Assembly (NCBI GenBank): GCA_964459635.1
Contig: CAYWMQ010000002.1
Span: 6,776 to 70,775 of the forward strand
Direction: 5' to 3'
Source of the DNA: an uncultured Candidatus Saccharibacteria bacterium
GTDB lineage: Bacteria; Patescibacteriota; Minisyncoccia; Phycocordibacterales; UBA12088
DNA length: 64,000 nt
Shown here: one piece after another, positions 4,323 through 47,558 of the stretch
Position numbering within the stretch: position 1 is the first letter of the stretch
How the letters are laid out: the number at the start of each line of letters is the position of its first letter
The notes under the pieces: model-generated
What the model saw: the letters and a program-made list of their open reading frames with translations, nothing else
What the model was told of the DNA's origin: nothing
Databases searched by the model: none
Made by a program: the position numbers and the translations under genes

Positions 4323-5099
4323 TTACCTGCGGCCTGCACTACTTGTAGCGGAAGATGTCGCGGTACTGGTGGAAGAGACAGCGGCGGGGGCCGGTGCTGC
4401 GGGGCGGGGGCGGGCCGCCGCACCGATGGTCCGGTCAAAACGAAGGATACGCGGCTCAAGACTCATGGATGCGCTAAACACTGCCTGATCCGTCTCGGAT
4501 ACGTTGAGGTTTGAAAAAAGCGGTTCACGCACAAGTTCATGCGACGAAAATACGTCGCTTTGCTGGGCAACGCTCTTAAAGTCGGGCGCGGTACCCTGAA
4601 GCGAAAGGAGTACTTGCTTCTCCGGCACATCGGTGGGAGCGTTGCGGTACCGCAGGGACAGATAGCGCACACTACGTGTGGTGTTCTGCTCAAGGAATCG
4701 CAATACTTCCGAAGGAGCAACGTGCGTTTCAAGAAGACGCTTAGCCGAGGTCATGCGGTCATCAAGACGCACCAGCTCTTCAATGAGCGCAGGCTGGAAC
4801 GCGTCACGATTTGCCTTTAGTTGTGCGATCTTGTCACTTATGGCACCGGTGATGTACTGCGTGTACAAAAAGAGGCCTGCTGAAACCAAGCAAGCGATAA
4901 AGAACAAGAGAAACGTCCCGTAGAATCCGGGCCCACGTGTCGACCGGCGAGCAACGTACTCGTGTACCGCCGGGCCCGGGGCCGCGCTCTGAAGCGACTG
5001 CTTCGGAATGAATGAGGTGTTGAACTTGGGCTCCATGTGATGCGTGTGGCGCAAACGTACCTCAAGTATACGGCACGGTGCGTTCAAGAAGCGAAACAC
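4323..5099 (-). CDS. PilN-like pilus assembly protein (the start may be the internal Met near 5036)
   Basis: 258-aa ORF; TM segment FLLFFIACLVSAGLFLY followed by a coiled coil; immediately downstream of pilM. Confidence 0.45.
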   Translation of the reverse strand: MFRFLNAPCRILEVRLRHTHHMEPKFNTSFIPKQSLQSAAPGPAVHEYVARRSTRGPGFYGTFLLFFIACLVSAGLFLYTQYITGAISDKIAQLKANRDAFQPALIEELVRLDDRMTSAKRLLETHVAPSEVLRFLEQNTTRSVRYLSLRYRNAPTDVPEKQVLLSLQGTAPDFKSVAQQSDVFSSHELVREPLFSNLNVSETDQAVFSASMSLEPRILRFDRTIGAAARPRPAAPAPAAVSSTSTATSSATSSAGRR

Positions 5100-6277: not shown

Positions 6278-6327
6278 AAGTATACCACTTGTGTCGCGGA
6301 GTACAGCACTCGGGGTACACTGGAAGT

Positions 6328-6978
6328 ATGTATAAGTGGGCGACCCTGCTTCTCGAGGTGCTATTTCCCCTTCGCGGCGACGACGCGCTCCTCCTGCGCG
6401 TAGAGCCGCACGTGCTTGAGCGCGCCGCACTCACGCGGAATACTGTCGGCATTGCACGCGCACTTGCACCGCTACCGTACACCCACAAGCTGGTGTCATG
6501 CGCGGTACGCGCGGCAAAGTATCGCAACCACGAGCGGGCCGCATGGCTCTTAGGTACGGCTATAGCGCCCTTTGTGGGTGAGGAGATCGCGGACAAACGC
6601 AACTTTGGCACATTTTACGAAGCTCTCGTGGTTCCAATACCGCTCCATAAGAAACGTCGCAGAGAGCGCGGGTACAATCAAGCCGAGCGTATTGCACAGG
6701 CCGTTGTGGATGCTCTGCCGGAAAGCGGGCTCCTGCTCGCGCCCCAGGTGCTCGTGCGAACGCGCAATACCCCATCACAGGTACGCATACAGAAGCGCAA
6801 GGAACGGCTTGCAAACGTACGAGGTGCGTTTGCGGTGCCGGACCCGGCAGGCGTGCACGGTAGAGATATTATTGTGCTCGACGATGTGACCACCACGGGC
6901 GCGACCCTTGCCGGTGCGGCGCAGGCGTTGAAAAAGGCCGGGGCACGTGAAGTGCTTTGCGTGGCAGCGGCACATTGA
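6328..6978 (+). CDS. comFC: ComF-family phosphoribosyltransferase-domain competence protein
   Basis: C-terminal IIVLDDVTTTGATL PRTase motif; the N-terminal region is typical of ComFC. The start was placed at MYKWATLL, which has an upstream GGAAG. Confidence 0.7.
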   Translation: MYKWATLLLEVLFPLRGDDALLLRVEPHVLERAALTRNTVGIARALAPLPYTHKLVSCAVRAAKYRNHERAAWLLGTAIAPFVGEEIADKRNFGTFYEALVVPIPLHKKRRRERGYNQAERIAQAVVDALPESGLLLAPQVLVRTRNTPSQVRIQKRKERLANVRGAFAVPDPAGVHGRDIIVLDDVTTTGATLAGAAQALKKAGAREVLCVAAAH

Positions 6979-7086
6979 CGGACACGATACCAATCTGCGA
7001 ATGATACGAATGCAACGAATGTACTACGCGTTACGCGACTCGAACCCGCAACAAGCAGCGGAGTTGGCCAAGCTAGGGTGTGCAGC

Positions 7087-7359
7087 TCACTCGTACACTT
7101 CTTTGCGATGTTTTATGCGCAGCACGGTAAGGACGTGGACGACCTTACCGTGCTCAAACTCAAAAATAGCGCGATACTCTCCCACTCGATACCGATACAA
7201 ACCCGTAAGCGGTCCTGTAAGCGCTTTTGCTCGCGCGAGCGGGTCGGGCATGCTGCTGTTCTCCTTCACCTTCAACACAATGCGGCGTGCAAGCGGCTTG
7301 TCGAGCGCAAGCAAATCTTTACGTGCATGCGCCGTATAGAACAACGCGGTGGTAGCCAT
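7087..7359 (-). CDS. RelE/ParE-family type II toxin
   Basis: 90 aa; fold-typical RelE/ParE sequence; 6 bp downstream of the antitoxin gene. Confidence 0.6.
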   Translation of the reverse strand: MATTALFYTAHARKDLLALDKPLARRIVLKVKENSSMPDPLARAKALTGPLTGLYRYRVGEYRAIFEFEHGKVVHVLTVLRIKHRKEVYE

Positions 7360-7365
7360 ATATAC

Positions 7366-7608
7366 TCAGGAAAGCTCCGCAAGAATATCATCATGCGTGT
7401 AAAGCTTACCCTCACGTATGTCCCGTTTTGCGGCAAGTATGTCGCTGAAGAGCGTATCGAGCGTTACGTCCTCAGCAAAAGGGGTCAGCTCGAAAAGCGG
7501 CTTGTTGCGGTTGACTACGATATACCGCGCGTTCTTTTTCCGCGCGCGAGTCACGTAATCGGATATGTTGGCGCGAAAATCCTTAATGCCGACAAACTTT
7601 GTGTTCAT
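7366..7608 (-). CDS. Phd/YefM-family antitoxin
   Basis: 80 aa; Phd/YefM-like N-terminus (FVGIKDFRANISDYV...); operon partner of the RelE-like gene. Confidence 0.6.
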   Translation of the reverse strand: MNTKFVGIKDFRANISDYVTRARKKNARYIVVNRNKPLFELTPFAEDVTLDTLFSDILAAKRDIREGKLYTHDDILAELS

Positions 7609-8074: not shown

Positions 8075-8324
8075 TTCGGTCCGCCGAAGCAGACCTATGG
8101 CGTGACGAAGTCCGCCGGAAGGTGTGCGTAGGCGACCTTCGCCTCGCTGAAGCGTGGCTACGGCGTGACGAAGTCCACAAGGAGCTAGGCGAAAGCGGGG
8201 TTCGCTTGCGTAGACCTTCGCTGTGGCAGAGTCCGCAGAAACCGAGCGAGCGAAGGTGACCAGTGAGATGCCCTTACCGTCCACACAAACGTGTGCAGAA
8301 AAATACCATCAGCTGTTGACTGTG

Positions 8325-12859: not shown

Positions 12860-14998
12860 ATGAACCCTGAGCAGCCGCTCGCGGATATCATGCGCATACC
12901 AGACGCAGAAGCGCGGGCACTCAAGCGCCTCGGCATAGCAACCGCGCGCGACCTCCTCTACCACCTCCCCGCTCGCTACGAACGCGCGGGCGATGTGCGC
13001 ACCATAGGCGGTATCGCGACCGGCACCGAAGCCATACTCTACGGGACTTTGCGCAAACCGGAGACGAGAAAAACATGGAAAACGAAGCGGCCCATTGCTG
13101 AGGCATGGCTTGAGGACGGCACGGGCAAGCTGAAACTCATGTGGTTCAACCAGCCGTACATTGCAAAGATGTACCCCGACGGACTCACGGTGAAAGTGTC
13201 AGGCCGCATAGACGGCACGCCCCCGTACATGGCAAACCCAGAGATAGAGCGCATTGAGCGTATACCGGTAGGTGGCACCGGGCCGCTCTTTAAGGAGACG
13301 AGCGATGAGCTCCTCGCGGTATACCCGGAGTCACAGGGCGTGTCTTCACGCTGGATGCGGCATGCGATAGCGCGGCTTTTGCGTGAGGGAGCACACGAGG
13401 CTCTGCCCGATCCGATACCTGAGCCGATACGCACACGCTACCGCTTGCCCTCACTTGCTGCGGCACTCGTGTACATACACACACCCAAGCGCGACAAGGA
13501 CGCCGCCGCCGCACGCAAGCGCTTTGCATTCGAGGAAGTGTTTACGATACAGGTGGCCGCACAACAGGAGCGTGCCGGGCTCGCGAAGCTCCCCACACCC
13601 GCTATACCGGACGGGCCGGGCCGTGCCAGGGAGCTTGAGGCACGACTGCCTTTTCGTCTCACACGGGGCCAAGAGCGTGCCGTGGCGGCAATACTCTCCG
13701 ACATGAGCGCACCACCCGCCATGAGCCGCTTGCTTGAGGGCGACGTCGGGAGCGGTAAAACGGCCGTTGCCGCGCTCACCTCGTATGCGGTCGTGACGAG
13801 CGCGCCCAAAGGCCGACCGTCCGCCAACTACCAGGTAGCGTACATGGCGCCCACTGAGGTATTGGCGCAGCAGCATTTTGAGTCTTTCATTTCATTATTC
13901 AAGCACCTCCCCATACAGCTGGGGCTACTTACCGGAAGCGTGTGCCGTAGGTTTCCGTCGAAGGTGCGCGCAAGCGAGAGCACGCCTGTGTCGCGTGCTC
14001 AGCTCTTGAAGCAAGTCGCGAGCGGCGAGATATCCATGCTCATAGGCACGCATGCGCTCATACAAAAGAGCGTGGCCTTTCGCGACCTCGCGTATGTGAT
14101 AGTGGACGAGCAGCACCGCTTCGGGGTCAACCAGCGCCGCACACTCGTACGTAAAGATGGGACACTGCCTCACTTTCTTTCTATGACCGCCACGCCGATA
14201 CCACGTACGCTCGCCCTTACCCTGTACGGTGACCTAGACCTGACGGTGCTCGATGAAATGCCCGCAGGCAGGAAGCCCGTACATACCGAGGTGGTGCCAA
14301 AAGGCGGGCGCGCGGCCATGTACACCGCGCTCCGTGCCGAGCTCACCGCGGGCAGGCAAGCGTACGTGATATGCCCGCGCATAGACGAGGCGGACCCAAG
14401 CAAAGCTGCTGCGCTCGTGACGAAGTCCGTGACGGCGGAGGCGGCACGGCTTGCGGCGGGCGAACTTAAGGGATTTCGTGTGGCGCTGCTCCACGGCCAG
14501 ATGAAACCGAACGAGAAAGATGTGGTCATGCGCGCGTTCCTCGCACACGAGGCAGACGTGCTCGTGGCTACATCGGTGGTGGAAGTGGGGGTCAACGTAC
14601 CGAACGCCACGGTCATCATCATTGAAGGCGCGGAGCGTTTTGGGCTGGCACAGCTCCACCAGCTGCGCGGCCGCGTCGTACGGTCTACCCATCAAGCCTA
14701 CTGCTACCTCCTCACGAGCGAGGGTCAACACAACAGCCGCCTCACCGCGCTCGCGAAAGCGAAGAGCGGCTTTGAGCTGGCGGAGCTTGACCTCAAGCTC
14801 CGAGGCCCGGGCGAGCTCTACGGGCGAAGCCAGTCCGGACTTTCCGACATCGGCATGGAGGCGCTCAAAAACCTGAAGCTCGTGGAAGCCGCACGCGATG
14901 AAGCACGCGCGCTTGTGGCTCTGGACAGCGCGCTTTCACATTACCCCGCGCTCGCCCACGCGGTCGCTCGCCGCCGCGAGCGCTTGCACTTTGAGTAA
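12860..14998 (+). CDS. recG: ATP-dependent DNA helicase RecG
   Basis: 712 aa; GDVGSGKT Walker A, DEQHRFGV, helicase C-terminal motifs, and an N-terminal wedge-domain region. Confidence 0.9.
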   Translation: MNPEQPLADIMRIPDAEARALKRLGIATARDLLYHLPARYERAGDVRTIGGIATGTEAILYGTLRKPETRKTWKTKRPIAEAWLEDGTGKLKLMWFNQPYIAKMYPDGLTVKVSGRIDGTPPYMANPEIERIERIPVGGTGPLFKETSDELLAVYPESQGVSSRWMRHAIARLLREGAHEALPDPIPEPIRTRYRLPSLAAALVYIHTPKRDKDAAAARKRFAFEEVFTIQVAAQQERAGLAKLPTPAIPDGPGRARELEARLPFRLTRGQERAVAAILSDMSAPPAMSRLLEGDVGSGKTAVAALTSYAVVTSAPKGRPSANYQVAYMAPTEVLAQQHFESFISLFKHLPIQLGLLTGSVCRRFPSKVRASESTPVSRAQLLKQVASGEISMLIGTHALIQKSVAFRDLAYVIVDEQHRFGVNQRRTLVRKDGTLPHFLSMTATPIPRTLALTLYGDLDLTVLDEMPAGRKPVHTEVVPKGGRAAMYTALRAELTAGRQAYVICPRIDEADPSKAAALVTKSVTAEAARLAAGELKGFRVALLHGQMKPNEKDVVMRAFLAHEADVLVATSVVEVGVNVPNATVIIIEGAERFGLAQLHQLRGRVVRSTHQAYCYLLTSEGQHNSRLTALAKAKSGFELAELDLKLRGPGELYGRSQSGLSDIGMEALKNLKLVEAARDEARALVALDSALSHYPALAHAVARRRERLHFE

Positions 14999-15000
14999 CA

Positions 15001-15076
15001 GGTGCGCGTGCCAGGGCTCGAACCTGGGACCGCCGAGGTATAAGCTCGGAGCTACTACCAACTGAGCTACACGCGC
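15001..15076 (-). tRNA. tRNA with anticodon UAU (reads AUA; tRNA-Ile2-like)
   Basis: Hand-folded from the reverse complement: acceptor GCGCGTG/CACGCGC, anticodon stem CCGAG/CTCGG, loop CTTATAC, T-loop TTCGAGC, discriminator A. Confidence 0.7.
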
Positions 15077-15253
15077 AATACTTGTTGTCAAACGTACTCC
15101 CCACCTATTCGCGCACAGAACCGTTACCTGCCACGACAGCTATGCGCGCGTACGGGTACTATATAGCGCACAGGCACAAAACGCAAAACACCGACGTGGG
15201 GCCGGTGTTTTGCGCATCGCTGTGATGCTAAGGCGCTGCGCTATCATCCTGCG

Positions 15254-16699
15254 CTACTCACCGGGAGTGGGTGCAGACGTGGTCGCCCAGCTTGGGGCGG
15301 TGCCGGTGCTTGTGTTCATGTTCGTACGGTATATGGCCTCGCCAGCGCGTGCTTCAGGGGCAACCGGTGCGGAAGTGGTGCTTGTGCCCCAGCGTACGGA
15401 GTCGGAAAGCGTGCCATCGCTACGGTACAGACGCACGCTATCGCCGTCGTTGTCGAGTCCGTTACCAATGCTCATACTCAGTACCAACCACGCCGTACCT
15501 GTTGGTAGCGTCCAGAATTCATCCGTTGAGGTCGCGGGCGTGATGAGCGCATATGCTCCGGGCGCAAGGAGTCGCGTAGTTGTAGCGAGCGTGCGCGTGG
15601 CCGTGTCATCGCGCAGAGTCCAGCCCATCAGGTCTACGGTGGTGGAGCCGCTGTTCCAAAGCTCCACCCATTCGTTTTCCGGTTCTTCACCCCATGCACT
15701 GGTGGTGCCACTCCGGTACAACACCTCCGTGATACTTACGGTACCTGTTGCAGCAGTGGTCGTCGCGGGTGTCGTGGTCGCGGGTGTTGTTGTAGCAGGC
15801 GTGGTCGTGGCAGGTGTGGTTGTCGCCGGAGTAGTCGTCGCGGTCGTAGTCGTGGCAGATGTCGTGGTAGCGGAGCCTGAAGTTGCCATGCGCGAGAATC
15901 CGACGGTTACCGAGTCGGTGGTCGTACCCCTCTCATTTGCACAGGCGAGCGCGTACGTACTTGTCGCGTTTACCGTGACCGTACTGCTGCCCGTCGTAGC
16001 CCTGGACCCGCTCCATGCATTTGTGGCGATACAGCTATTTGCGTTTGTGCTGCTCCACGTGAGCGTGGTACTCGCCGGTGCGGTACCTGTGGCAGTCACC
16101 GTTTGAGGATCTGCACTGAGGTCAACAGTCGGAAGCGCCATAGTGGAGGTAGAGGTGGTACCTGTCGAGGTGCCAGTTGTGGTACCTGTCACTGTGAGCA
16201 TGATCGTGCGGGATGTTGTGCCCCGCTCATTCGCACACGCGAGGCTATACTCGGTGCTCGTCGCCGGCGATACGGCTGCCGTACCGGACGCGACGCGTGT
16301 GCCTGTCCAGCCTCCTGACGCAAGACACGTGTCCGCATACAGCGCGTTCCACATAAGGGTGCTGGTCGCTCCCGTAGCTATCGTTCCCGGGTTTGCGGAG
16401 AAAGTAAGCGCAACCGGCCGCGCCGGAGTACCGCTCCCCTCCTCACAAAACGCGGGGAGCTCTATGCCATACCTGTCTTGGAGTCCCGCGTACCGCGTAC
16501 ATATGCGCTCTTCGGCACGCGCAAGTCGCTCTTCAATACGCTGCAGGGCGCGCTCTATCCGCGCGTCTATCCGCTCTTGTATGCGCTCAAACAGGAGGTA
16601 TGTGTTGTCTGTCGTGGTTGCCTGCGCCTGCACCGTGTGCGGAAGCACGGAAGCGCACAAAGCTACAAGCAGAAGCGCAACGCTGGTTTGTATCTTCAT
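15254..16699 (-). CDS. Secreted surface protein with two Ig-like repeat modules, a Thr/Pro-rich linker and a C-terminal lamin-tail (LTD) domain
   Basis: Signal peptide MKIQTSVALLLVALCASVLPHTVQA; an internal ~95-aa repeat (...LACANERGTT... twice); (TTPAT)n linker; EWVELWN...VDLMGWTL LTD signature. Confidence 0.65.
   Translation of the reverse strand: MKIQTSVALLLVALCASVLPHTVQAQATTTDNTYLLFERIQERIDARIERALQRIEERLARAEERICTRYAGLQDRYGIELPAFCEEGSGTPARPVALTFSANPGTIATGATSTLMWNALYADTCLASGGWTGTRVASGTAAVSPATSTEYSLACANERGTTSRTIMLTVTGTTTGTSTGTTSTSTMALPTVDLSADPQTVTATGTAPASTTLTWSSTNANSCIATNAWSGSRATTGSSTVTVNATSTYALACANERGTTTDSVTVGFSRMATSGSATTTSATTTTATTTPATTTPATTTPATTTPATTTPATTTAATGTVSITEVLYRSGTTSAWGEEPENEWVELWNSGSTTVDLMGWTLRDDTATRTLATTTRLLAPGAYALITPATSTDEFWTLPTGTAWLVLSMSIGNGLDNDGDSVRLYRSDGTLSDSVRWGTSTTSAPVAPEARAGEAIYRTNMNTSTGTAPSWATTSAPTPGE
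15757..15872. repeat. 15-bp tandem repeat (about 7 copies) encoding the TTPAT linker
   Basis: ggtcgtNgcNggtgt-like units seen directly in the sequence. Confidence 0.7.
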
Positions 16700-16893
16700 G
16701 GTAGGTAATGCAGAGTAGCATGGTTACCTGATAAGTCTTACCGTATAAGGTGCGGTGCGCGTTGTGACGCCGCTGTGTCAGAGCACGCACCTGCTGCATA
16801 CTCTATGGTACGCATTGGACATGAAAGAGCAGTGACGCCGCGCTCTAGCGTGTTCTGCTCAGCGTGAACATGTGCCATATAGAACAGGCCGCG

Positions 16894-17190
16894 TTACACG
16901 GCCTGTTCTTTGTCTTCTTGAGTAGAGTCTTTGGGTATCGCGCCAAGCGCAGCGAGACGTTCCAGCACCGGTACAGGCGCGGCTCCGTCTCGCGGTATCT
17001 TTTCGCGTATCGGGACCGCGTGCACCTCCGTGCCCACCTTCACCAAAAAATACTCTGCGTCATGCGGGTCATCCGTATCGAGCGTTACCGTATCCCCATA
17101 TTTTTCTTGCACGCGCGCAATGAGCTCATGCTTCGCTGCATGCATCGCTTCGCCCGCATCAGGAGATTGCTCTGCACTATTTTTTGTCAT
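16894..17190 (-). CDS. Hypothetical small protein co-transcribed downstream of ftsH
   Basis: 98-aa ORF that starts 2 bp after the ftsH stop. Confidence 0.4.
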   Translation of the reverse strand: MTKNSAEQSPDAGEAMHAAKHELIARVQEKYGDTVTLDTDDPHDAEYFLVKVGTEVHAVPIREKIPRDGAAPVPVLERLAALGAIPKDSTQEDKEQAV

Positions 17191-17192
17191 AG

Positions 17193-19157
17193 TTAGACGA
17201 TATGGTTGCCCACCCGCACCTCTTCCGGGTCGCGCTTCTTCGGCTCTATGCCGTGGAGAATGAGTATCTTCTCAAAATCGTCGCGCTCAAGCGTTTCCAC
17301 CTCTATGAGCTTTGCCGCTATAGCGTCAAGTGCCTTGCGGTTGTCCACGATAGCGGTGCGCGCACGGTCATAGGCTTCACGCACAATACGCGCCACCTCC
17401 ACGTCTATCTCGGCGGCCACCTTGTCGCTATACTCACGCTCACCAAGCCCCATCCCGAACATGGTACGGCCACCATCAGACTCGTATGCCATCGGCCCCA
17501 TCTTTTCGCTCATACCCCAGCGCGCGACCATGTTGCGTGCGAGCGCGGTCAACACCTGCAAGTCGTTGGACGCACCTGTGGTGAGATCGCCGAACACAAG
17601 CTCCTCCGCCACGTACCCGCCCAGCGACTTTGCAATGTCGTCCAAAAACTCCTTGCGAGACTGCATACGCCTGTCCTCGAACGGCAGTGTGAGCGTGTAG
17701 CCGGCCGCACGACCACGGCTGATAATGGATATCTTGTGGACCGGATCAGAATGCGGAAGCACCGACCCCACAAGTGCATGTCCCGCCTCATGGTAAGCGG
17801 TAATCTCTTTTTCACGCCTTGAGAGAACATGGCTCTTGCGTTCGGGACCGAGCATGACCTTCTCGATCGAACGAATAAGGTCATACTGCGTGATCTTTTT
17901 ACGGTCCTCGCGCGCGGCAAGGATGGCCGCCTCATTCATGAGGTTCATGAGATCGGCACCTGAAAAGCCCACGGTACGCTCCGCTATGGTCGCCATGTTC
18001 ACATCTTCGCCCAAAGGCTTCTTGCGCGCATGCACCTCAAGTATCGCCTCCCGATCACCGCGATCGGGAAGGTCTATGGTCACGCGCCTGTCGAAGCGAC
18101 CGGGGCGCATGAGCGCAGGGTCCAGCACATCCGGCCTGTTGCTCGCGGCCATGATGATTATTTTTTCGTTCGGCTCAAAACCGTCCATCTCCACGAGTAT
18201 CTGATTGAGCGTTTGTTCACGTTCATCATTGCCACCGCCTACACCGGTGCCGCGTACGCGTCCCACCGCGTCTATCTCGTCAATAAATATTATTGCCGGG
18301 GCGGCCTTTTTCGCCATCCGAAAGAGGTCGCGCACCCGCGACGCGCCCACACCCACGAAGAGCTCGACAAACTCCGACCCCGAGATGGAGAAGAACGGCA
18401 CGTTCGCTTCGCCCGACACTGCACGTGCAAGCAGCGTCTTTCCTGTACCGGGCGCCCCCATAAGTAGGACACCCTTCGGGATACGCGCGCCAATATCCAG
18501 GAACTTCTTCGGGTTCTTCAAGAAGTCCACTATTTCGGTAAGCTCTTCTTTTGCCTCTTTCGCACCCGCCACATCCTTAAACGTGATGCGCTGATGCTTG
18601 TCAGCGGGGTCTATCATGCGCGCCTTGCTCTGGCCGAACGTAAAGGCTTGCATGCCGGCACCCTTCACCTGCCGCATCAAGAACCACAGCAGGATGAGTA
18701 TGAATATGAGCGGGAAGAGAAATGGCGCAAGCGTCAAGAACCAAAAGCGCACGCCGTTCTCGTCCGCCACCTCGATAGGTACGTTACGCAGCACTTCTCC
18801 CGATACGCCGTAGTTGTTGAGTGTGTCGGATAGTGCGGTGCCCGCCTCTTTCTTGGCCTTTTTCTCTACGCGCTGCTCGCCCTCACCTGTGTCGTAGGTC
18901 GCCAGTACCTGGTCCCCTTCCACGCGTATGCCTTCGACGGAACCCGCCAGGATGTCTGTCGCAAGCTCAGAGAGCGAGATCTCCGCCGGCGCTTCGCCCC
19001 GGTCGGCGAAGTACGAGAATACGCCCGTAAGGGCAAGCAGGATCAAAAACGTGAGGACGAGGTTGACCCAAAACTGGCGTCCGGGCTGAAAACTGCCGCC
19101 CTCTTGCTTGTCCGGCCGCTTTCCGGTTTGCGACCGCTTGTCGTGTTCGTGTTCCAT
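17193..19157 (-). CDS. ftsH: ATP-dependent zinc metalloprotease FtsH
   Basis: AAA+ Walker [23 protein letters not shown] zinc motif, and two N-terminal TM helices. The start was taken at MEHEHDKR; the longer ORF extends to 19262. Confidence 0.9.
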
Positions 19158-29804: not shown

Positions 29805-29848
29805 ACTGTAGTGATACAAATGCGACTCCTCGTTACCCGATACCAATC

Positions 29849-29980
29849 AACGAATGTGTACTTGTCCCGCCGTAGCTCGTTTGCGAAGGGGGGGGCGAAT
29901 GCTGCGAATAGATCCACCTATCTTGCTCTGACGCTGTGATCCATTCGTTGCATTCGTACCGTACTCGTGTAATTCGTATT
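29849..29980. repeat. ACGAATG ... CATTCGT inverted heptad array in the rplX-rplN spacer (180-bp intergenic gap inside the spc cluster)
   Basis: caacgaatg, ggcgaatgctgcgaatag, then ccattcgttgcattcgtaccgtactcgtgtaattcgtattg. It also contains the 16-nt block cccgccgtagctcgt shared with 36517..36535. Confidence 0.65.
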
Positions 29981-29983
29981 GTG

Positions 29984-32486: not shown

Positions 32487-32535
32487 GTGATGATGTATTC
32501 GCGGCATTCGTACTCATTCGCAGATTCGTATCGTG

Positions 32536-32880
32536 CTATTTCTTACCGGTCGTCGTGGCTGCCTTGGCGGCCTTGGCTGCCTGTATCTCGGCGTCCTTGC
32601 GCTTCTGCTCAAGCTCCTTCTGGATCTTACCGCCGTGCCGTAGGAACTTCGTCGTCGGAGAAAACTCGCCAAGCTTGTGGCCCACCATGTCCTCCGTGCA
32701 GAGCACCTCCACGTGCGACTTGCCGTTGTGGACGCCAAACGTGAAGCCGACCATTTCGGGGCTGATGGTGCACGCGCGCGACCACGTGCGAATAACCCCG
32801 GTCGTTTGCGGCTTCTTGCCCTCTATCTTTTTCAAGACACGGGGGTCAACGTATGGTCCTTTCTTGAGTGAGCGTGACAT
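32536..32880 (-). CDS. rpsS: 30S ribosomal protein S19
   Basis: [12 protein letters not shown]... Confidence 0.9.
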
Positions 32881-34209: not shown

Positions 34210-34893
34210 TTATTTAGCGGTGCGGGCGCGCTTTTCAAGCACTTCCACCGACTCTGCGGGCGATGCAATGATGAGGTACTTGTGGCGCAAGACTTCTACC
34301 GGATTGAGATTGCGTGCATCCTCAAGCATGATGTGGCCGAAGTTACGGAAGCTCTTCTTTGTTGCCTCGCCCGGCGCTGCGACCGCTACAAGGGCTGCAT
34401 TTTTGCGCTTGGTTGCAAGCGGCGCGAAACCGTCGACCTTCGCAAGCGCCATGAGCGTCTTATTCGCCTCGGCGGCCTTGGGCTCCGCAAATGCAAGCTC
34501 GTCCAGGAAGAGCACCTCGCCATCGGCAAGCTTGCGCGAAAGCACCGCATAGAGAGCCTGTACGCGCATCTTCTTGTTTATCTTCTGCGCGTATGAGCGC
34601 TCGTTGCGCGGGCCATGCGCCACGCCTCCCTTGGTCCAGATAGGGCTGCGGCGGCTGCCGTGGCGGGCGTTGCCCGTACCCTTCTGTTTCCATGGTTTCT
34701 TGCCCGTGCCGGACACTTCCGCGCGGTTCTTCGTGTGTGCGATGGGCGTACGAGCATTGGCCTGCATAGCGGTCACCACCTGGTGTACCAGATCTGCGTT
34801 CCACGCGGCACCGAATACAGCCTCGGGAAGATTGATCTCTCCCGCCTTAGTGCCTGCCGTGTTGTAGATAGTTGCTTTCATGGTGTGGGTCAC
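34210..34893 (-). CDS. rplD: 50S ribosomal protein L4
   Basis: 227 aa; L4 signature region. Confidence 0.9.
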   Translation of the reverse strand: MTHTMKATIYNTAGTKAGEINLPEAVFGAAWNADLVHQVVTAMQANARTPIAHTKNRAEVSGTGKKPWKQKGTGNARHGSRRSPIWTKGGVAHGPRNERSYAQKINKKMRVQALYAVLSRKLADGEVLFLDELAFAEPKAAEANKTLMALAKVDGFAPLATKRKNAALVAVAAPGEATKKSFRNFGHIMLEDARNLNPVEVLRHKYLIIASPAESVEVLEKRARTAK

Positions 34894-35016
34894 GATGCGA
34901 ATCTACGAATGGGTGCGAATGCTACGAATAAATGCTCTACCGGCGATACATTAAGAGTGTTGCATACGTTAGTAATTCATTCGCTGCATTCGTAACATTC
35001 GTTGATTAGTATCGTG
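34894..35016. repeat. Inverted array of ACGAATG / CATTCGT heptad-like repeats in the rplC-rplD spacer
   Basis: Four ACGAATG-type units face three to four CATTCGT units across a ~40-nt centre. It can fold as a long imperfect hairpin in the mRNA. Confidence 0.7.
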
Positions 35017-35625
35017 CTATTTTCCGCGTACCTCCACCAGCGAGCCGCGCCGCCCGGGCACCGCGCCGCGAATGTATAGGAGGTTCTTTTCGGGATCGAC
35101 GGCCACAACTGTCAAATTTTTCGTCGTTACGCGGTCACTGCCCATGCGTCCCGCCATGCGCATGCCCTTGGGAACGCGCCGGCGAAGACCGCCACCGATG
35201 GATCCGGGCTGACGCTCGTTGTGTTTCTGGCCGTGGCTACGGGGACCGCCCGAGAAATCGTGGCGCTTCACCACGCCTTGGTAGCCCTTGCCTTTCGACG
35301 TACCGGACACCATGACGACGTCGCCAACCGCAAACATATCGGCAACGGTCAAAACCGTACCGATCTCTTGGCTTACTGACTCGCCTGGAGCGGCCCGGTA
35401 TTCCTTGAAGTGCCTGAAAAGACCCTTCGGGCGCTGCGCCTTGTTGATGTGCTTCTCCTTAGCCTCGCCAAACGCAAGCTGTACAGCCGCGTAGCCATCC
35501 TTTTCGGGCGTTTTGAGCTGCGTTACGGTATTCGGGGTAGCCAAAAGCACCGTGGCAGGGTGTACGCGCCCGTCTGCATCGAATATTTGGGTCATATGCT
35601 GCTTGGTGGCGAGAATGAATTTCAT
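35017..35625 (-). CDS. rplC: 50S ribosomal protein L3
   Basis: 202 aa, L3 signature. Confidence 0.9.
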   Translation of the reverse strand: MKFILATKQHMTQIFDADGRVHPATVLLATPNTVTQLKTPEKDGYAAVQLAFGEAKEKHINKAQRPKGLFRHFKEYRAAPGESVSQEIGTVLTVADMFAVGDVVMVSGTSKGKGYQGVVKRHDFSGGPRSHGQKHNERQPGSIGGGLRRRVPKGMRMAGRMGSDRVTTKNLTVVAVDPEKNLLYIRGAVPGRRGSLVEVRGK

Positions 35626-35676
35626 GACGCGATACGAATCAACGAATGGGTACGAATGCTACGAATGTGGTACGTA

Positions 35677-35697
35677 CAAAAAAGCCCGCACCGGGCC
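35677..35697 (-). terminator. Intrinsic terminator / attenuator-like hairpin in the rplC 5' leader
   Basis: Minus-sense ggcccggtgcgggc followed by TTTTTT, located between a candidate minus-strand promoter (about 35785..35795) and the rplC start. A CATTCGT array follows it. Confidence 0.55.
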
Positions 35698-35815
35698 AAG
35701 CGCCGGTAGGGCGAAAGGTCCAGTGGTTCCCGCCTCTCAGCTTGGGAACATGGAAGCAGCGTGAAGCTGCGTATAGGCTCATGCACTATACACGAAGGGC
35801 TTTGGGAATGCAAAT

Positions 35816-35844
35816 TTGACTTTTTCTCTGATATTTGCTATAAT
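35816..35844 (+). promoter_or_regulatory. Near-consensus sigma70-type promoter (TTGACT-17-TATAAT)
   Basis: Read directly in the sequence; it drives the small membrane-protein ORF at 35892. Confidence 0.6.
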
Positions 35845-35891
35845 ATTAAATTGAAGTGTCCCGCACTTTTCCACATAAGTAGGAGGACAAA

Positions 35892-36143
35892 ATGATGGTA
35901 GTCCTATGGTTGGCGTTGGTCACTGTTGCTGGGACGGTCCTGGGCGCCTTCGTTACGGTGCCGGTGCTGCTCATCGTCACAGTGATTGCTATGTCCGTAG
36001 TGCTTTGGTGCTATCTCAAAAATCCTTCGGCCATTTACGGACCATCGGCGGCCGGCCTCATTGCTGGTATGTGGTTCATGTATTTCCTCACCACCCACGA
36101 TGCGGCAGCGCGAACGTTCGTCGACACGTACATCTTGCGGTAG
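35892..36143 (+). CDS. Small hydrophobic membrane protein (83 aa), hypothetical
   Basis: Strong SD TAGGAGGAC; two to three TM helices. Confidence 0.45.
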   Translation: MMVVLWLALVTVAGTVLGAFVTVPVLLIVTVIAMSVVLWCYLKNPSAIYGPSAAGLIAGMWFMYFLTTHDAAARTFVDTYILR

Positions 36144-36179
36144 ATCGAGCAAGCGAAAGAAGAAGGAGTAGGAGCGGCC

Positions 36180-36374
36180 ATGTTCATTTTGCGTAGCCTC
36201 GACAAGAACGGCAAGCGTGTATACCGCACACGCAACGGCGGTTGGAGCACGCATCGGAACGATGCGTGCAGATACGAATCCCACGAGTTTGCGCAACGCG
36301 TAGCTCGACGGACGACGCCGCCGGCGCGCAACGCGCGTGTTGAGATTGAGTCTGTGCGCGAGAAGGAAAAGTAA
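36180..36374 (+). CDS. Small basic hypothetical protein (64 aa)
   Basis: SD GAAGGAG upstream; a hairpin follows at 36431..36456. Confidence 0.35.
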   Translation: MFILRSLDKNGKRVYRTRNGGWSTHRNDACRYESHEFAQRVARRTTPPARNARVEIESVREKEK

Positions 36375-36674
36375 GCGAAGAGTTGCAGATTCCTAGATCA
36401 GACCGATTCGAGTAAGCAAACGCGTCTCGCATCACGGCTCACCTTCGGGTGAGCCGTGAACTGTTTGTAGCTACCTGAAATTGTTGATAGTCTCCATTTT
36501 CGCTGATATCCGCGCGTGTCCGCCGTAGCTCGTGGGGACAACGAATGCGGGTGGTATCCGCGTCTAGCATCCAGCCTCCGCTAGAGCTACCTGCCTACCG
36601 GCAGGTAGGCGGATTACGTGGGATCTAAGTCGCCCCCACCCTGCTACGCCGGAGGCGACGCAGGTTCTAAAAAA

Positions 36675-37664
36675 CTGTGAATTACGAAACTCCTCCCCAC
36701 CCCTTTGCACCATACACCCCAAACACACCCGTTAGGGTGTAGCACGTACGCTTGATTGTCACACACACGAAGGAAATTGATTGTGCCTACGCGAGCACGA
36801 ATGAAAGAAGTGCGTAGAGATAGTTTGCGAAGTACCCATTCACTGAGCGCGGAAGTGAGGTAACGAGACCGTGGAACAGCTTCAGGTTGCGGAAGTCGAA
36901 CTCGATGTCAAAGCGTTTCTTGTAGAGGTGGAGCTGCCAAGCCTCGGCGAGCTTCTTCATGTTTTTGTACGGCTTGATGAGCACCCACCGCCGGTCGTTG
37001 TTCATGTCGCGCTCAAGTTGCTTTGACACGTACCCCGCATCCGCAACGATGATGCCCTCGATGTATTCGTTGATCTTGCGGAAGATGTCGCGGTCATCCG
37101 CGTTGGCGGGCGTGAAGCGGAGCGCGAGGAGACGTCCCGCAGCATCCCGTGTCATGGTCATTTTAAGGCCGAAATAGAAGCCTTTTCCAGAGTGGCCCCA
37201 TGCGGCGAGTCCGGCCATGGTCTTGTGGTGTTTACCGTTCTTGGTGAGACACACGGGTATATCGGTCGCATCGGTGTACTTCACGATGTGCTGGTCCTTG
37301 TGCCCGAGCCGCATGAGGTATGCAAGGATCAGGAACACCAGACGGGCTGCACGATTGATCGCCTCCACAAACGTCTTGTACGAGCAAGGTATCGCTTCCT
37401 TGAAGTCGTCATATACGGACTTCTTAGTAGCGCGTGTTGACTGATGCCAGTACAGGCCCCAAATGACCGCGTCCAAGGGATTGATGGCTAATGGTCGACC
37501 CACCCTCTTTCCTTCGGGGAGGATGTGGAGTTTTTGTGCTATGTGTGTGACAATGTGCGTGAGGTTGTCCCATATCTTTGGGAACATACAATACAAGAGG
37601 CTCCATACGGAGCCTTTTGTATTGTATCGAAATGCAGTGCGGGAGGGAGTTTCGTAATTCACAG
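36675..37664. mobile_element. IS982-like insertion sequence (990 bp) with 24-bp imperfect terminal inverted repeats and a 7-bp TAAAAAA target-site duplication
   Basis: IRL ctgtgaattacgaaactcctcccc matches IRR (reverse complement ctgtgaattacgaaactccctccc). Direct repeats TAAAAAA at 36668..36674 and 37665..37671. A single DDE transposase ORF lies inside. Confidence 0.75.
36787..37587 (-). CDS. DDE transposase (IS4/IS5 superfamily, IS982-like)
   Basis: 267 aa from MFPKIWDNL; the length and single-ORF organisation are typical of IS982-family elements. The DDE catalytic triad was not identified. Confidence 0.7.
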   Translation of the reverse strand: MFPKIWDNLTHIVTHIAQKLHILPEGKRVGRPLAINPLDAVIWGLYWHQSTRATKKSVYDDFKEAIPCSYKTFVEAINRAARLVFLILAYLMRLGHKDQHIVKYTDATDIPVCLTKNGKHHKTMAGLAAWGHSGKGFYFGLKMTMTRDAAGRLLALRFTPANADDRDIFRKINEYIEGIIVADAGYVSKQLERDMNNDRRWVLIKPYKNMKKLAEAWQLHLYKKRFDIEFDFRNLKLFHGLVTSLPRSVNGYFANYLYALLSFVLA

Positions 37665-37681
37665 TAAAAAAGGCTACAACC

Positions 37682-37709
37682 AAAACGCCGGCCTTGCGGC
37701 CGGCGTTTT
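37682..37709 (-). terminator. Intrinsic terminator downstream of rpsJ
   Basis: aaaacgccggcc-ttgc-ggccggcgtttt hairpin. Confidence 0.7.
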
Positions 37710-37720
37710 GGTAAGTCTTT

Positions 37721-38095
37721 CTAAGACATTTTCACATCAATGTTCACACCTGAGGGAAGGGAGAGGTTCGTGAGAGCCTCAATGACTTTCCCCGATGGGT
37801 TCATGATGTCGATAACCCGCTTGTGCACCCTCATCTCGAACTGTTCTCGCGCATCTTTGTCGATGAAGGCCGCGCGGTTTACCGTGTATTTCTTTATTTC
37901 CGTGGGCAGGGGCACCGGGCCGACCACCTCCGCATCGTACCGCATGGCCGTATCCATGATCTGCTTGATGCTCGCGTCGAGTATCTTGTGCTCGTACGCG
38001 CGGATGCGGATGCGGAGCTTCGTTGCGGGCGCCTCTCCCTGCTTGGCCTTCGGGGCCCTTTTGGCGGTCTTGGGTGCGGTAGGAGCTGCTGCCAT
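37721..38095 (-). CDS. rpsJ: 30S ribosomal protein S10 (with an Ala/Pro/Lys-rich N-terminal extension)
   Basis: ...LRIRIRAYEHKILD... S10 core. Confidence 0.9.
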   Translation of the reverse strand: MAAAPTAPKTAKRAPKAKQGEAPATKLRIRIRAYEHKILDASIKQIMDTAMRYDAEVVGPVPLPTEIKKYTVNRAAFIDKDAREQFEMRVHKRVIDIMNPSGKVIEALTNLSLPSGVNIDVKMS

Positions 38096-38116: not shown

Positions 38117-39322
38117 TTAGGCGACGACCTTTGTTACGACACCTGCGCCAACGGTCTTGCCGCCTTCGCGAATAGCGAAACGCTGCTGTTCCTCAAGCGC
38201 GACAGGAGCCACGAGCTTCACCTTGAAGGTGACGGTGTCACCCGGCATCACCATTTCCACGCCCTCGGCGAGTGTCACCTCACCTGTCACGTCTGTCGTG
38301 CGCACGTAGAACTGGGGCTTGTAACCCGAGAAGAACGGCGTATGGCGGCCACCCTCTTCCTTCTTGAGGATGTATACCTCGGCCTCAAACTCGGTGTGCG
38401 GGGTCACGGAGCCTGTCTTTGCAAGCACCTGGCCGCGATGCACATCATCCTTCTTGGTGCCGCGTAGCAGCACGCCCGCGTTGTCGCCCGCGCGGCCCTC
38501 GTTGAGCTGCTTGTTGAACATTTCAATACCGGTCACCGTGGTCTTGGTGGTGTCCTTGATACCGACGATCTCCACTTCCTCTCCCACCTTCACGATACCG
38601 CGCTCGATGCGGCCCGTGACCACCGTACCGCGGCCTTCAATGGAGAATATGTCCTCGATAGGCATGAGGAAGGGCTTCTCCACATCGCGCACCGGCTCGG
38701 GAATGTAGGTGTCGAGCGTATCAATGAGCTCGATGATCTTCTTCGCCCACTCATCGTCCGCGCTCGTAGCCTCAAGCGCCTTAAGGCCGGAACCGCGAAT
38801 GATAGGCGCGTTCTTGCCGTCAAAGTTGTTCTTGTCGAGAAGCTCGCGGAGCTCTTCTTCAACGAGGTCGAGCATGTCGGGATCGTCCACCATGTCGCAC
38901 TTGTTGAGGAACACGATGATCTTCGGCACACCGACCTGGCGTGCAAGGAGTACGTGCTCACGAGTCTGCGGCATCGCGCCGTCCGTGGCCGCCACCACCA
39001 AGACCGCGCCGTCCATCTGGGCTGCGCCGGTGATCATGTTCTTAATGTAGTCGGCGTGGCCGGGCGCGTCGATGTGCGCGTAGTGCCTGTTCGGCGACTC
39101 GTACTCGCTGTGGTGGAGCGCAATGGTAATACCGCGCGCCTTTTCCTCGGGCGCGTTGTCGATACCGTCAACGCCCTCAATGCGTGCGTTGTAGCCCTTG
39201 TCTTTCGCAAGGTTACCCAGCACATGGAGGATCGCTGCGGTCGTGGTCGTCTTGCCGTGGTCAACGTGGCCGATGGTGCCTACGTTCACGTGCGGCTTGG
39301 ACCGATCGAATGCTTCTGCCAT
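38117..39322 (-). CDS. tuf: Elongation factor Tu
   Basis: [18 protein letters not shown] motifs; start chosen at [11 protein letters not shown] with a GGAAGGAG SD. Confidence 0.95.
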
Positions 39323-39514
39323 GGTCGTTCGCGTTATGCTCCTTCCGAAGTTCAGGGCGCGAGAACGGTGCCTCAACACCGGAAGGTGCGGATAATAATT
39401 CGCCCGGGTGTCGCTGCCTGCCGGGTACGTTCGCGTACGCGCTCGATCCGGCTGTGCTCCGCGCCTTCCGCAGAGAGCACAATGACAAAAAACACACGCA
39501 GTGCGGTACACGGC

Positions 39515-39542
39515 ATAATACCGCACAGGCGCTGCAAGTCAA
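39515..39542 (-). promoter_or_regulatory. Candidate tuf promoter (minus-sense TTGACT-16-TATTAT)
   Basis: Seen in the reverse complement of the tuf leader, about 190 nt upstream of the start codon. Confidence 0.5.
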
Positions 39543-43567: not shown

Positions 43568-43741
43568 ATGACAGGATGCTAATTTTACTAATGACGTACG
43601 AATGCAACGAATAATTGACCCGTACGGTATGAATAAAAATCCGCGCAACGCGGTAGGTGACGACACTATACCGTGCGTTGACGGAATACTCAAGAGGTGA
43701 TTAGGTGTGGGCAGACGCAACAGCTGGGAAGGACGTGCGTA

Positions 43742-46128: not shown

Positions 46129-46174
46129 ATCTCGATACTAATCTACGAATTTCTACGAATACTGCGAATTAATG

Positions 46175-46689: not shown

Positions 46690-47496
46690 TTACCGCATGC
46701 GGCCTCCCTTCCGAGCACTGCGCCATAGGTGGTCAAACTGTTGCGCCATAATCTCTGCCATATCCGCGCTTTCAACCGTCATGGCGTAATGCTCGCGATC
46801 AGAAGCTATGAACGTGACCTTTGTACCGTATACGCCGTACCCCATGGCCGCGGTGAGCTCGGGGGGCGCGATGCGAACTTCGCGCAGCGCCTCAGCATCT
46901 AAACGACGCGAGAGACGCGGGTCAGCAGGCTTCGGCATGTGCGATGCGGGCCATAGTACGCGAATGGAAATGTTCCTGCGTATGCGTTCCGACCGGTACT
47001 CCTCAAATATTTCGCCCGGAATAGCGTGGCGCATACTCCTCACCGGCCAGTACCAGCGCACAAGCGTGCCTGCTCGCAGTATGCCGGCAAAAACAGCACG
47101 GTATGCGCGCACACTGTCGGCAATGAAAAAACGGGGCGTGGCATGTGGCGTGGGCACCGCGCGCGTCAGTAACTCACCGAGCCCACGCGTAGCTGCAGCA
47201 AGGCTGCGCTGCCGCTCATCCGCCCAGCCACGTATTGCGGCTTGGTCCGCCGCAACGAACACCGGAGCTTCCCCTGTGTGTGCCTTGAGCACCAAACCCT
47301 GCTCTTCGAGCCAACGCAGGTGGTCGTACACGCTGGTACGGGGCATGTTGAGCATACGGGCTATATGCAGCGCGGTTGTGCCATTTTCACTGTGCAAAAT
47401 GGCACCAAATACGCGCGTCGCATGCCAGCTGCAGCCGAGCGGCGCCATATGCTCATGCAACGCGGCCACAAAGTCGGTGTCGCTTTTTGTCGACAT
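46690..47496 (-). CDS. TrmB-family HTH transcriptional regulator
   Basis: Winged-helix N-terminus TALHIARMLNMPRTSVYDHLRWLEEQGLV followed by a TrmB-like C-terminal domain. Confidence 0.55.
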   Translation of the reverse strand: MSTKSDTDFVAALHEHMAPLGCSWHATRVFGAILHSENGTTALHIARMLNMPRTSVYDHLRWLEEQGLVLKAHTGEAPVFVAADQAAIRGWADERQRSLAAATRGLGELLTRAVPTPHATPRFFIADSVRAYRAVFAGILRAGTLVRWYWPVRSMRHAIPGEIFEEYRSERIRRNISIRVLWPASHMPKPADPRLSRRLDAEALREVRIAPPELTAAMGYGVYGTKVTFIASDREHYAMTVESADMAEIMAQQFDHLWRSARKGGRMR

Positions 47497-47558
47497 ATGT
47501 ACAGTATAGCGACTCGCGCGTACGGTGCAAAGAGACACGTACATGGAGGGTCAGTACG

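Follow-up and report, generated by a model that had tools for sequence, protein, structure and literature searches.

Ribosomal-protein leaders are known mostly from narrow lineages, and the Patescibacteria (CPR) combine tiny genomes with few recognisable regulators. How such a bacterium might control the output of its ribosomal-protein genes is the question raised by the rplC locus studied here, which lies within a 64,000-nucleotide stretch of DNA (hereafter, the window) and in which rplC is separated from rpsJ and has a promoter of its own. A literature search returned no report of a ribosomal-protein leader in Patescibacteria/CPR, nor any paper on a leader or noncoding RNA like the one described below in Saccharibacteria or Patescibacteria. 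A leader before rplC would offer a testable handle on the balance of ribosome production in Patescibacteria.

The source organism is a Patescibacteria/CPR bacterium; among the matches listed, the closest labelled L3 in GTDB is that of Candidatus Saccharibacteria, at 55-58% identity. The same locus recurs, with 0-1 mismatch, in four Logan assemblies. Identification of rplC (35017-35625, minus strand) rests on its open reading frame (ORF), the Pfam domain Ribosomal_L3 and the order of the genes downstream. Upstream on the same strand are rpsJ (37721-38095) and tuf (38117-39526), and the gap between rpsJ and rplC holds an IS transposase (36787-37683, minus strand; Pfam DDE_Tnp_1_3) and two small plus-strand ORFs. 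The leader lies in this gap, directly 5' of rplC, and is placed likewise in relatives.

Some features of the surrounding cluster deserve mention in their own right. This clade has insertion hotspots in the S10/spc cluster, namely the rpsJ-rplC gap (35892-37683 in the window) and further junctions: in relative L085, a ParE toxin gene, TrmB-family regulators and small ORFs are inserted (530-2660), and in L088 a Peptidase_S74 gene and a DDE transposase separate rplE from rpsN (13440-17560). A TrmB-like winged-helix regulator is also encoded in the window directly upstream of rpsL (46690-47544, minus strand), and TrmB-family genes occur within the ribosomal-protein cluster of L085 too. In two related genomes, tuf is called as two ORFs, one for the GTPase domain and one for domains 2-3 (L173, 134-1331; L177, 423-1617), which could reflect a frameshift, an assembly error or a real split.

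A promoter and three hairpins precede rplC

The leader promoter (35785-35813, minus strand) is of the sigma-70 type, TTGCAT-17-TGTATAGT, with the -35 element TTGCAT at 35813-35808, a 17-nt spacer that ends in TG and the -10 element TATAGT at 35790-35785. A promoter scan of 35500-36000 returned two promoter-like sites where 0.5 would be expected. Back-to-back with it, on the plus strand, is a near-consensus promoter (TTGACT-17-TATAAT, 35816-35844) ahead of an 83-aa membrane ORF (35892-36143); this ORF carries an AGGAGG, unlike the ribosomal-protein genes, which lack a Shine-Dalgarno (SD) sequence.

A preliminary description of this DNA had listed, in the direction of transcription, a promoter, a GC hairpin with U6, four CATTCGT-type heptads and an rplC start codon without an SD sequence, and a check of the coordinates found all of them where they had been placed. 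Two details needed amending. The hairpin is present and followed by TTTTTT, but the sequence given for it, ggcccggtgcgggc, takes in just the upper and 3' portion of a longer stem. Similarly, the rplC ATG (35625-35623) indeed lacks an SD sequence, but so do all seven ribosomal-protein genes checked in the operon, most of which have ...CACC-ATG instead, so that the absence is operon-wide and not specific to the leader.

The RNA expected to start from this promoter is a structured leader of ~105 nt with three hairpins, P1, P2 and P3, the last of which is a terminator followed by a U-tract. As a 107-nt sequence, it folds more stably than its shuffled versions (z = -2.5; 3/200). All its parts are read from the minus strand. 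The 5' segment GCAUGAGCCUAUAC (35771-35784; consensus GCAUGGGCUUAUAG) is conserved in sequence and, in a predicted alternative fold, pairs with the 3' strand of the terminator. It is followed by P1 (GCAGC-UUCAC-GCUGC, 35756-35770), whose sequence and length differ among genomes, and by P2 (CCA-U-GUUCC...GGAAC-CAC-UGG, 35720-35753), in which two helices flank an asymmetric internal loop. P2 is the best-conserved part of the leader, its outer CCA/UGG pairs being invariant, and is a candidate protein-binding site. An ACC and a UUUC linker come next (35713-35719); with the preceding CUGG, the ACC makes up CUGGACC, the putative 5' strand of an antiterminator.

P3 is an intrinsic-terminator hairpin, GCCCUACCGG-CGCUUGGC-CCGGUGCGGGC (35684-35712), of 10-12 bp with one bulge and a loop of consensus YUUGGUY; its full stem runs from GCCCTACCGG (35712-35703) through the loop CGCTTGGC to CCGGTGCGGGC (35694-35684). 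The U6 tract (TTTTTT, 35678-35683) follows directly. A terminator scan made four overlapping terminator-like calls here, against 0.4 expected. The highly conserved single-stranded segments of the leader are GGCUUAUAG, CCAUGU, CUGGACC and the loop sequence UUGGU.

Compensatory changes support the leader structure

To place the leader in an evolutionary context, L3 homologues 66-77% identical to that of the window were traced to their contigs, yielding nine related genomes (L085, L088, L090 and L171-L176). In all nine, rplC is preceded by the same promoter and a leader of ~100-140 nt, and every element-bearing relative that was read has a promoter of the form TTGCAt-16/17-T(G)TATAGT/TATACT upstream of rplC. 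The relatives also share the order of leader parts: the 5' segment of consensus GCAUGGGCUUAUAG, a variable P1, P2 (consensus CCA-U-GUYCC...GGRAC-CNC-UGG), ACC with a linker of 4-6 nt, P3 and a U-rich tail. A U-rich tail is present in 10/10 members, in a weaker form (AUUUGU) in L172 and L176.

The gap upstream of rplC measures at least 130 nt in all nine relatives, or else rpsJ does not occur within 2 kb (L174, L175). Since every relative has a gap with a promoter, rplC was already separate from rpsJ in the ancestor of the clade, contrary to the earlier suggestion that the attenuator was created after a split of the operon; the IS element of the window therefore did not cause the separation.

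We combined the window with the nine relatives in an alignment of 10 sequences and 111 columns, which was curated by hand to fit the structure, padded with N and preserved by MAFFT. In this alignment, 97.8% of cells are paired, compared with 80.1% in shuffles (sd 1.6), and 12 of the 23 pairs show changes on both sides (44 cells). The covariation score is 0.557 versus 0.181, and none of 500 shuffles reached the observed measures. When pairing partners were slid by 1-3 columns as a control, only 24-42% of cells remained paired. All five pairs of P1 covary and 100% of its cells are paired across the 10 sequences; P2 is likewise 100% paired, with compensatory changes in three of its five inner pairs; and in P3, where 94.7% of cells are paired, four pairs show compensatory changes (GC/UA/AU/CG, columns 79-102). 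Covariation of the leader in relatives, which had been proposed as a check on the attenuator, is thus seen in all three hairpins, the terminator included.

As an independent check on the hand-fitted alignment, the real sequences were realigned with a covariance model and handed to RNAalifold for free prediction, which returned the same 23 pairs, including P3, with compensatory changes in 13. Default MAFFT followed by RNAalifold on the raw leaders had misaligned the variable P1 and given only 14 pairs; this result is superseded by the curated and the covariance-model alignments.

Searching with the covariance model returned exactly one match per genome, always just 5' of rplC and co-oriented with it. 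The match in the window scored 63 bits (E = 6e-17; 35678-35784), with no second copy in the window. Contigs of GTDB and JGI were also searched with L3 peptides; the best matches listed were 53-58% identical, and L006 alone among them was informative. A divergent full-length match (10.6 bits) came up in the same place in L006, a Saccharibacteria genome in GTDB whose L3 is 58% identical; the element was not found in L177, a lineage at 64% identity, or in several lineages at 53-57%. In other Saccharibacteria, too, a GC hairpin with a U-tract abuts the rplC ATG, as seen in L009 (2800-3012) and L006 (9905-9995), the former in an apparently unrelated leader of ~150 nt and the latter in a reduced version of the leader motif described here.

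Scanning the whole window against Rfam at gathering thresholds returned two tRNAs only, and a permissive Rfam 15 scan of 35500-36000 gave just an irrelevant 20.9-bit match (E = 2.6); in six relatives, permissive scanning (E <= 10) placed no Rfam family at the leader position. A pattern scan of IMG/VR for the P2 core produced a single match, which we rejected as chance: it lies in GC-rich, coding-like DNA, scores 10.6 bits and covers P2 only. Judging from the comparative sequence evidence, the leader is almost certainly a conserved structured RNA.

The position of the terminator suggests attenuation

How does transcription reach rplC? The distance from the U-tract to the ATG is 5, 7, 12, 14, 15 and 16 nt in six of the 10 genomes, and 5 nt in L006. 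It amounts to 52 nt in the window, because a 43-nt repeat copy sits between terminator and ATG, and to 90, 146 and 201 nt in the remaining three, which carry other insertions. A consensus scan, which unusual promoters could escape, found no sigma-70-like site between U-tract and ATG, whether in the window or in those relatives that have long spacers. With no promoter-like site after the terminator and only 5-16 nt available in six genomes, transcription of rplC therefore reads through the terminator, and a hairpin with U-tract that is maintained by evolution and yet read through is, consequently, an attenuator. The attenuator reading of the preliminary description holds on these grounds. We thus think it rather likely that 35813-35678 (minus strand) comprises the promoter and cis-acting attenuator leader of the ribosomal-protein operon that starts with rplC-rplD, and this leader probably throttles ribosomal-protein synthesis.

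The strongest competing explanation would make the element a free-standing small-RNA gene that acts in trans, for instance by sponging up a protein or simply as a stable RNA, with rplC transcribed by incidental read-through. It is, after all, a complete unit from promoter to terminator, its predicted minimum free-energy (MFE) fold pairs the 5' with the 3' end, as is common among stable small RNAs, and insertions that leave 52-201 nt before rplC are tolerated in four genomes. Against this, the element is co-oriented with and directly 5' of rplC in 10/10 genomes, even where rpsJ is not found within 2 kb (L174, L175); no promoter-like site separates it from rplC; and because the U-tract is only 5-16 nt from the ATG in six genomes, the essential rplC operon relies on read-through. 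We consider a trans-acting small RNA unlikely and a cis-acting attenuator the better reading.

Attenuation by a leader peptide was considered and rejected: AUG-GGC-UUA-UAG occurs in only ~4/10 leaders, and the 47-codon ORF of the window (35639-35782) is not conserved.

The leader is predicted to fold in two ways

According to ViennaRNA, an alternative fold is the MFE structure in eight of the 10 leaders, that of the window among them, with the terminator fold 0.8-7.4 kcal/mol higher; in the other two, the terminator fold is itself the MFE structure. The alternative fold draws on two complementarities. First, CUGGACC, just 3' of P2, can pair with the P3 loop and inner 3' strand (GGUYCRG). The 7-bp core shows this complementarity in almost every cell; for the helix, pairing reaches 80% of cells, compared with 19-53% in slid controls, and covariation is marginal, as 20-63 of 500 shuffles reach its value. 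Second, the outer 3' strand of P3 (UAUAGGC or similar) can pair with GCUUAUA of the 5' segment; here 80.6% of cells pair with columns 99-105, compared with 25-42% in slid controls, and there are zero compensatory changes. Suggestive variants of the alternative helix are GGACAAA/UUUGUUC in L174, GACCAAU/GUUGGUC in L088 and CAAUGG/CCAUUG in L006. The alternative fold competes both with P3 and with the invariant outer CCA/UGG pairs of P2.

A bistable switch with an antiterminator is therefore plausible as a model from predicted folds. In its OFF state, P2 (outer CCA/UGG included) and P3 would both form, and RNA polymerase would terminate at the U-tract. In its ON state, the 5' segment and CUGGACC would pair with the P3 loop and 3' strand and so destroy the terminator. 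Because the alternative fold competes with P3 and the outer P2 pairs, a protein that clamps P2, for instance by binding its invariant internal loop, would hold CUGG within P2 and favour termination, which could establish negative feedback. In relatives where the hairpin is 5-16 nt from the ATG, it could additionally occlude ribosome loading. Since four genomes tolerate 52-201 nt between terminator and ATG, the terminator need not be closely coupled to the start codon.

As to what the switch may respond to, the odds that the effector is a ribosomal protein seem to us about even, and the narrower proposal that it is L4 specifically, made by analogy, is a tentative one that we regard as possible yet on balance doubtful. 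Comparison with E. coli 16S/23S rRNA, the window holding no rRNA of its own, revealed no mimicry: local alignment scores remained at shuffle level and shared 5-mers at chance. One shared 5-mer, CUGGA, falls at 23S position 305, which we take to be near the L4 site; such 5-mers occur at chance frequency.

Alternatively, a riboswitch-like attenuator might sense something other than a ribosomal protein, such as (p)ppGpp, Mg2+, NusA or NusG, and tie ribosome synthesis to the growth state. The predicted bistable architecture, with its terminator and antiterminator folds, the highly conserved single-stranded segments and the failure to detect rRNA mimicry (against E. coli 16S/23S) would all suit such a sensor. 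However, Rfam offers no matching riboswitch or leader family, even at E <= 10, no obvious ligand pocket is apparent, and all occurrences of the element precede ribosomal-protein genes, for which autogenous feedback by a protein is the established pattern (PMC3616713, PMC7247131). We hold this to be very unlikely.

More improbable still is that the hairpin is a constitutive leaky terminator or insulator that senses nothing, and merely fixes an expression level or blocks read-in from mobile DNA. The rpsJ-rplC gap is an insertion hotspot, occupied by the IS element and small ORFs here and by ParE and TrmB genes in L085, which would give an insulator a purpose; yet the terminator is placed downstream, not upstream, of the leader's own conserved promoter, and a plain terminator would have no need of the further ~70 nt of conserved structure made up by P1, P2 and the 5' segment.

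Relation to known ribosomal-protein leaders

In E. coli, L4 controls the S10 operon through a leader attenuator, dependent on L4 and NusA, and through translation, and a hairpin of that leader can block ribosome loading (PMC3616713). The leader described here resembles it in being a structured leader of an operon with rplC and rplD, in having a terminator hairpin within the leader as the control point and, in most relatives, in carrying this hairpin so near the first start codon that it could act on translation too. The two differ in most other respects. They share no sequence or Rfam similarity; the E. coli leader has five hairpins, the present one three; and the former lies upstream of rpsJ, whereas the latter lies downstream of rpsJ, before rplC, behind its own promoter. 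The E. coli L4 leader RNA is, moreover, confined to Gammaproteobacteria (PMC3616713), and the leader here belongs to Patescibacteria. The earlier proposal of an attenuator independent of the S10 leader is borne out, in that the conserved unit of promoter, leader, hairpin and U-tract is not homologous to it.

The leader of the infC-rpmI-rplT operon in B. subtilis, where L20 exerts control by attenuation (PMC3616713), offers the same logic as that proposed here, a ribosomal protein acting through a leader terminator, but in another operon, with another protein and an unrelated structure. A candidate L4 leader of Archaeoglobi, found computationally, precedes rplC-rplD-rplW-rplB, and L4 was suggested as its ligand on the strength of precedent (Eckert and Weinberg 2020, PMC7247131). 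It differs in being archaeal and in implying no terminator mechanism, and no Rfam 15 family matches the leader studied here. What does set this leader among attenuators is a GC-rich hairpin and U-tract between a promoter and the first gene, and what sets it among ribosomal-protein leaders is a conserved structured RNA in the 5' UTR of a ribosomal-protein operon. Mimicry of rRNA is documented for the B. subtilis L20 leader; none was detected here against E. coli 16S/23S.

Taken together, we regard the leader as a candidate ribosomal-protein leader of one Patescibacteria clade that is not a member of the S10 or infC families. As a new RNA family absent from Rfam 15, it would join the independently evolved solutions to ribosomal-protein control.

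The heptads are one copy of a dispersed repeat

Between the U-tract and the rplC ATG, the sequence ATTCGT occurs four times (35666-61, 35657-52, 35647-42 and 35639-34, minus strand), at spacings of 9, 10 and 8 nt. In the window as a whole ATTCGT is not enriched (35 found versus 28.7 expected), and locally the cluster is far beyond chance, because the array is a copy of a repeat family. This copy, which includes all four heptads, spans 35627-35669 (minus strand; nhmmer E = 6e-14).

An nhmmer profile of the ~45-nt unit, ATTCGYnGCATTCGYAnnnATTCGYWGATTnGYATCGTG, identified nine copies in 64 kb. Besides the one before rplC, they are located at 6981-7025, 34890-34934, 43571-43617 and 46130-46174 on the minus strand, at 29939-29983, 32492-32536 and 34974-35017 on the plus strand and, in split form, at 29836-29914 on the minus strand; the eight unsplit copies have nhmmer E-values of 1e-6 to 9e-15. 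Each repeat consists of four direct ATTCG cores with a period of ~9-10 nt, the cores being invariant while the spacers vary.

All but one of the nine copies reside within ribosomal-protein or elongation-factor operons. Those oriented with transcription stop 2-9 nt short of the ATG in the case of rplC, rplD, rpsG and fusA and 33 nt short of it in that of rplX, and those oriented against it begin 0-4 nt past a stop codon, namely that of rplC, rpsS, rplN or a comF-like gene; the ATCGTG end of the repeat always abuts a start codon in forward copies and a stop codon in reverse ones. The rplC-rplD spacer (34885-35020, minus strand) is filled by a reverse and a forward copy, predicted to form an imperfect hairpin of ~130 nt (-45 kcal/mol, z = -5.9), and the rplN-rplX spacer (29836-29983) is likewise filled by an inverted pair; most copies are solo. 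In relatives, the rplC-rplD junction measures only 1-17 nt.

No ATTCG arrays were found at the three relatives' loci scanned (L085, L088, L090), and the array is absent from every orthologous rplC leader. The heptads are therefore no component of the conserved attenuator; by sequence comparison they are a genome-specific insertion between terminator and start codon. This disposes of the idea that they form its effector- or antiterminator-binding platform, which the four evenly spaced units (9, 10 and 8 nt) between terminator and start codon and the invariant cores with variable spacers, a hint at recognition, might have suggested and to which we give next to no credence: this ~45-nt array recurs through the window in nine copies of both orientations, at gene starts and stops, is missing from orthologous leaders and from the L085, L088 and L090 loci, and, lying downstream of the terminator, cannot affect the termination decision co-transcriptionally. 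Recognising the heptads as a genome-wide repeat removes a false lead.

Short, multicopy, intergenic repeats that often lie inside operons and in both orientations include the REP/BIME, Correia/MITE-like and MIRU elements. The ATTCG repeat is like these in its length of ~45 nt, its many copies, its strictly intergenic location, its two orientations and the long RNA hairpins formed by inverted pairs. It is unlike them in being built of four direct sub-repeats rather than a palindrome and in having one end that abuts a start or stop codon. By eye, the repeat showed no consistent target-site duplication, and no cognate transposase was identified for it. It may be a MITE/REP-like element or a functional cis-module.

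The invariant cores, the helical-turn spacing and the position at start and stop codons of translation genes would suit a recognised cis-module and, if that were true, a trans-acting factor on the ATTCG arrays would coordinate or enable translation genes that lack SD sequences. The joint reading, in which the leader is a new class of bistable switch that senses a ribosomal-protein or growth signal for the rplC-to-rpsQ block and the arrays are cis-modules bound by a trans factor rather than selfish DNA, strikes us as quite a long shot.

Upstream of fusA (43569-43693, minus strand), the layout is similar to that before rplC, with a promoter (TTGAGT-17-TATAGT), a short GC hairpin CCGCGUUGCGCGG followed by AUUUUU (43653-43641), an ATTCG copy and the ATG, but without the long structured leader. 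The fusA and rpsG genes are ~2 kb apart, with unrelated plus-strand ORFs in between. Another repeat copy adjoins a ParE toxin and Phd/YefM antitoxin pair (7087-7608, minus strand), which is convergent with the comF-like phosphoribosyltransferase gene (6289-6978, plus strand).

No junction repeat was found in L088 or L090. L085 has one of its own: it is 60 nt long, differs from the ATTCG repeat and is present in two copies (4680-4739 and 8183-8242) that are 78% identical. This genome also carries an AT-rich insert of ~200 nt with inverted repeats between leader terminator and rplC. Of its two junction repeats, one ends at the rplN start and the other at an ATG that precedes the annotated rplB start by 39 nt; with initiation at this earlier ATG, L2 would be 281 aa long, as it is in the window.
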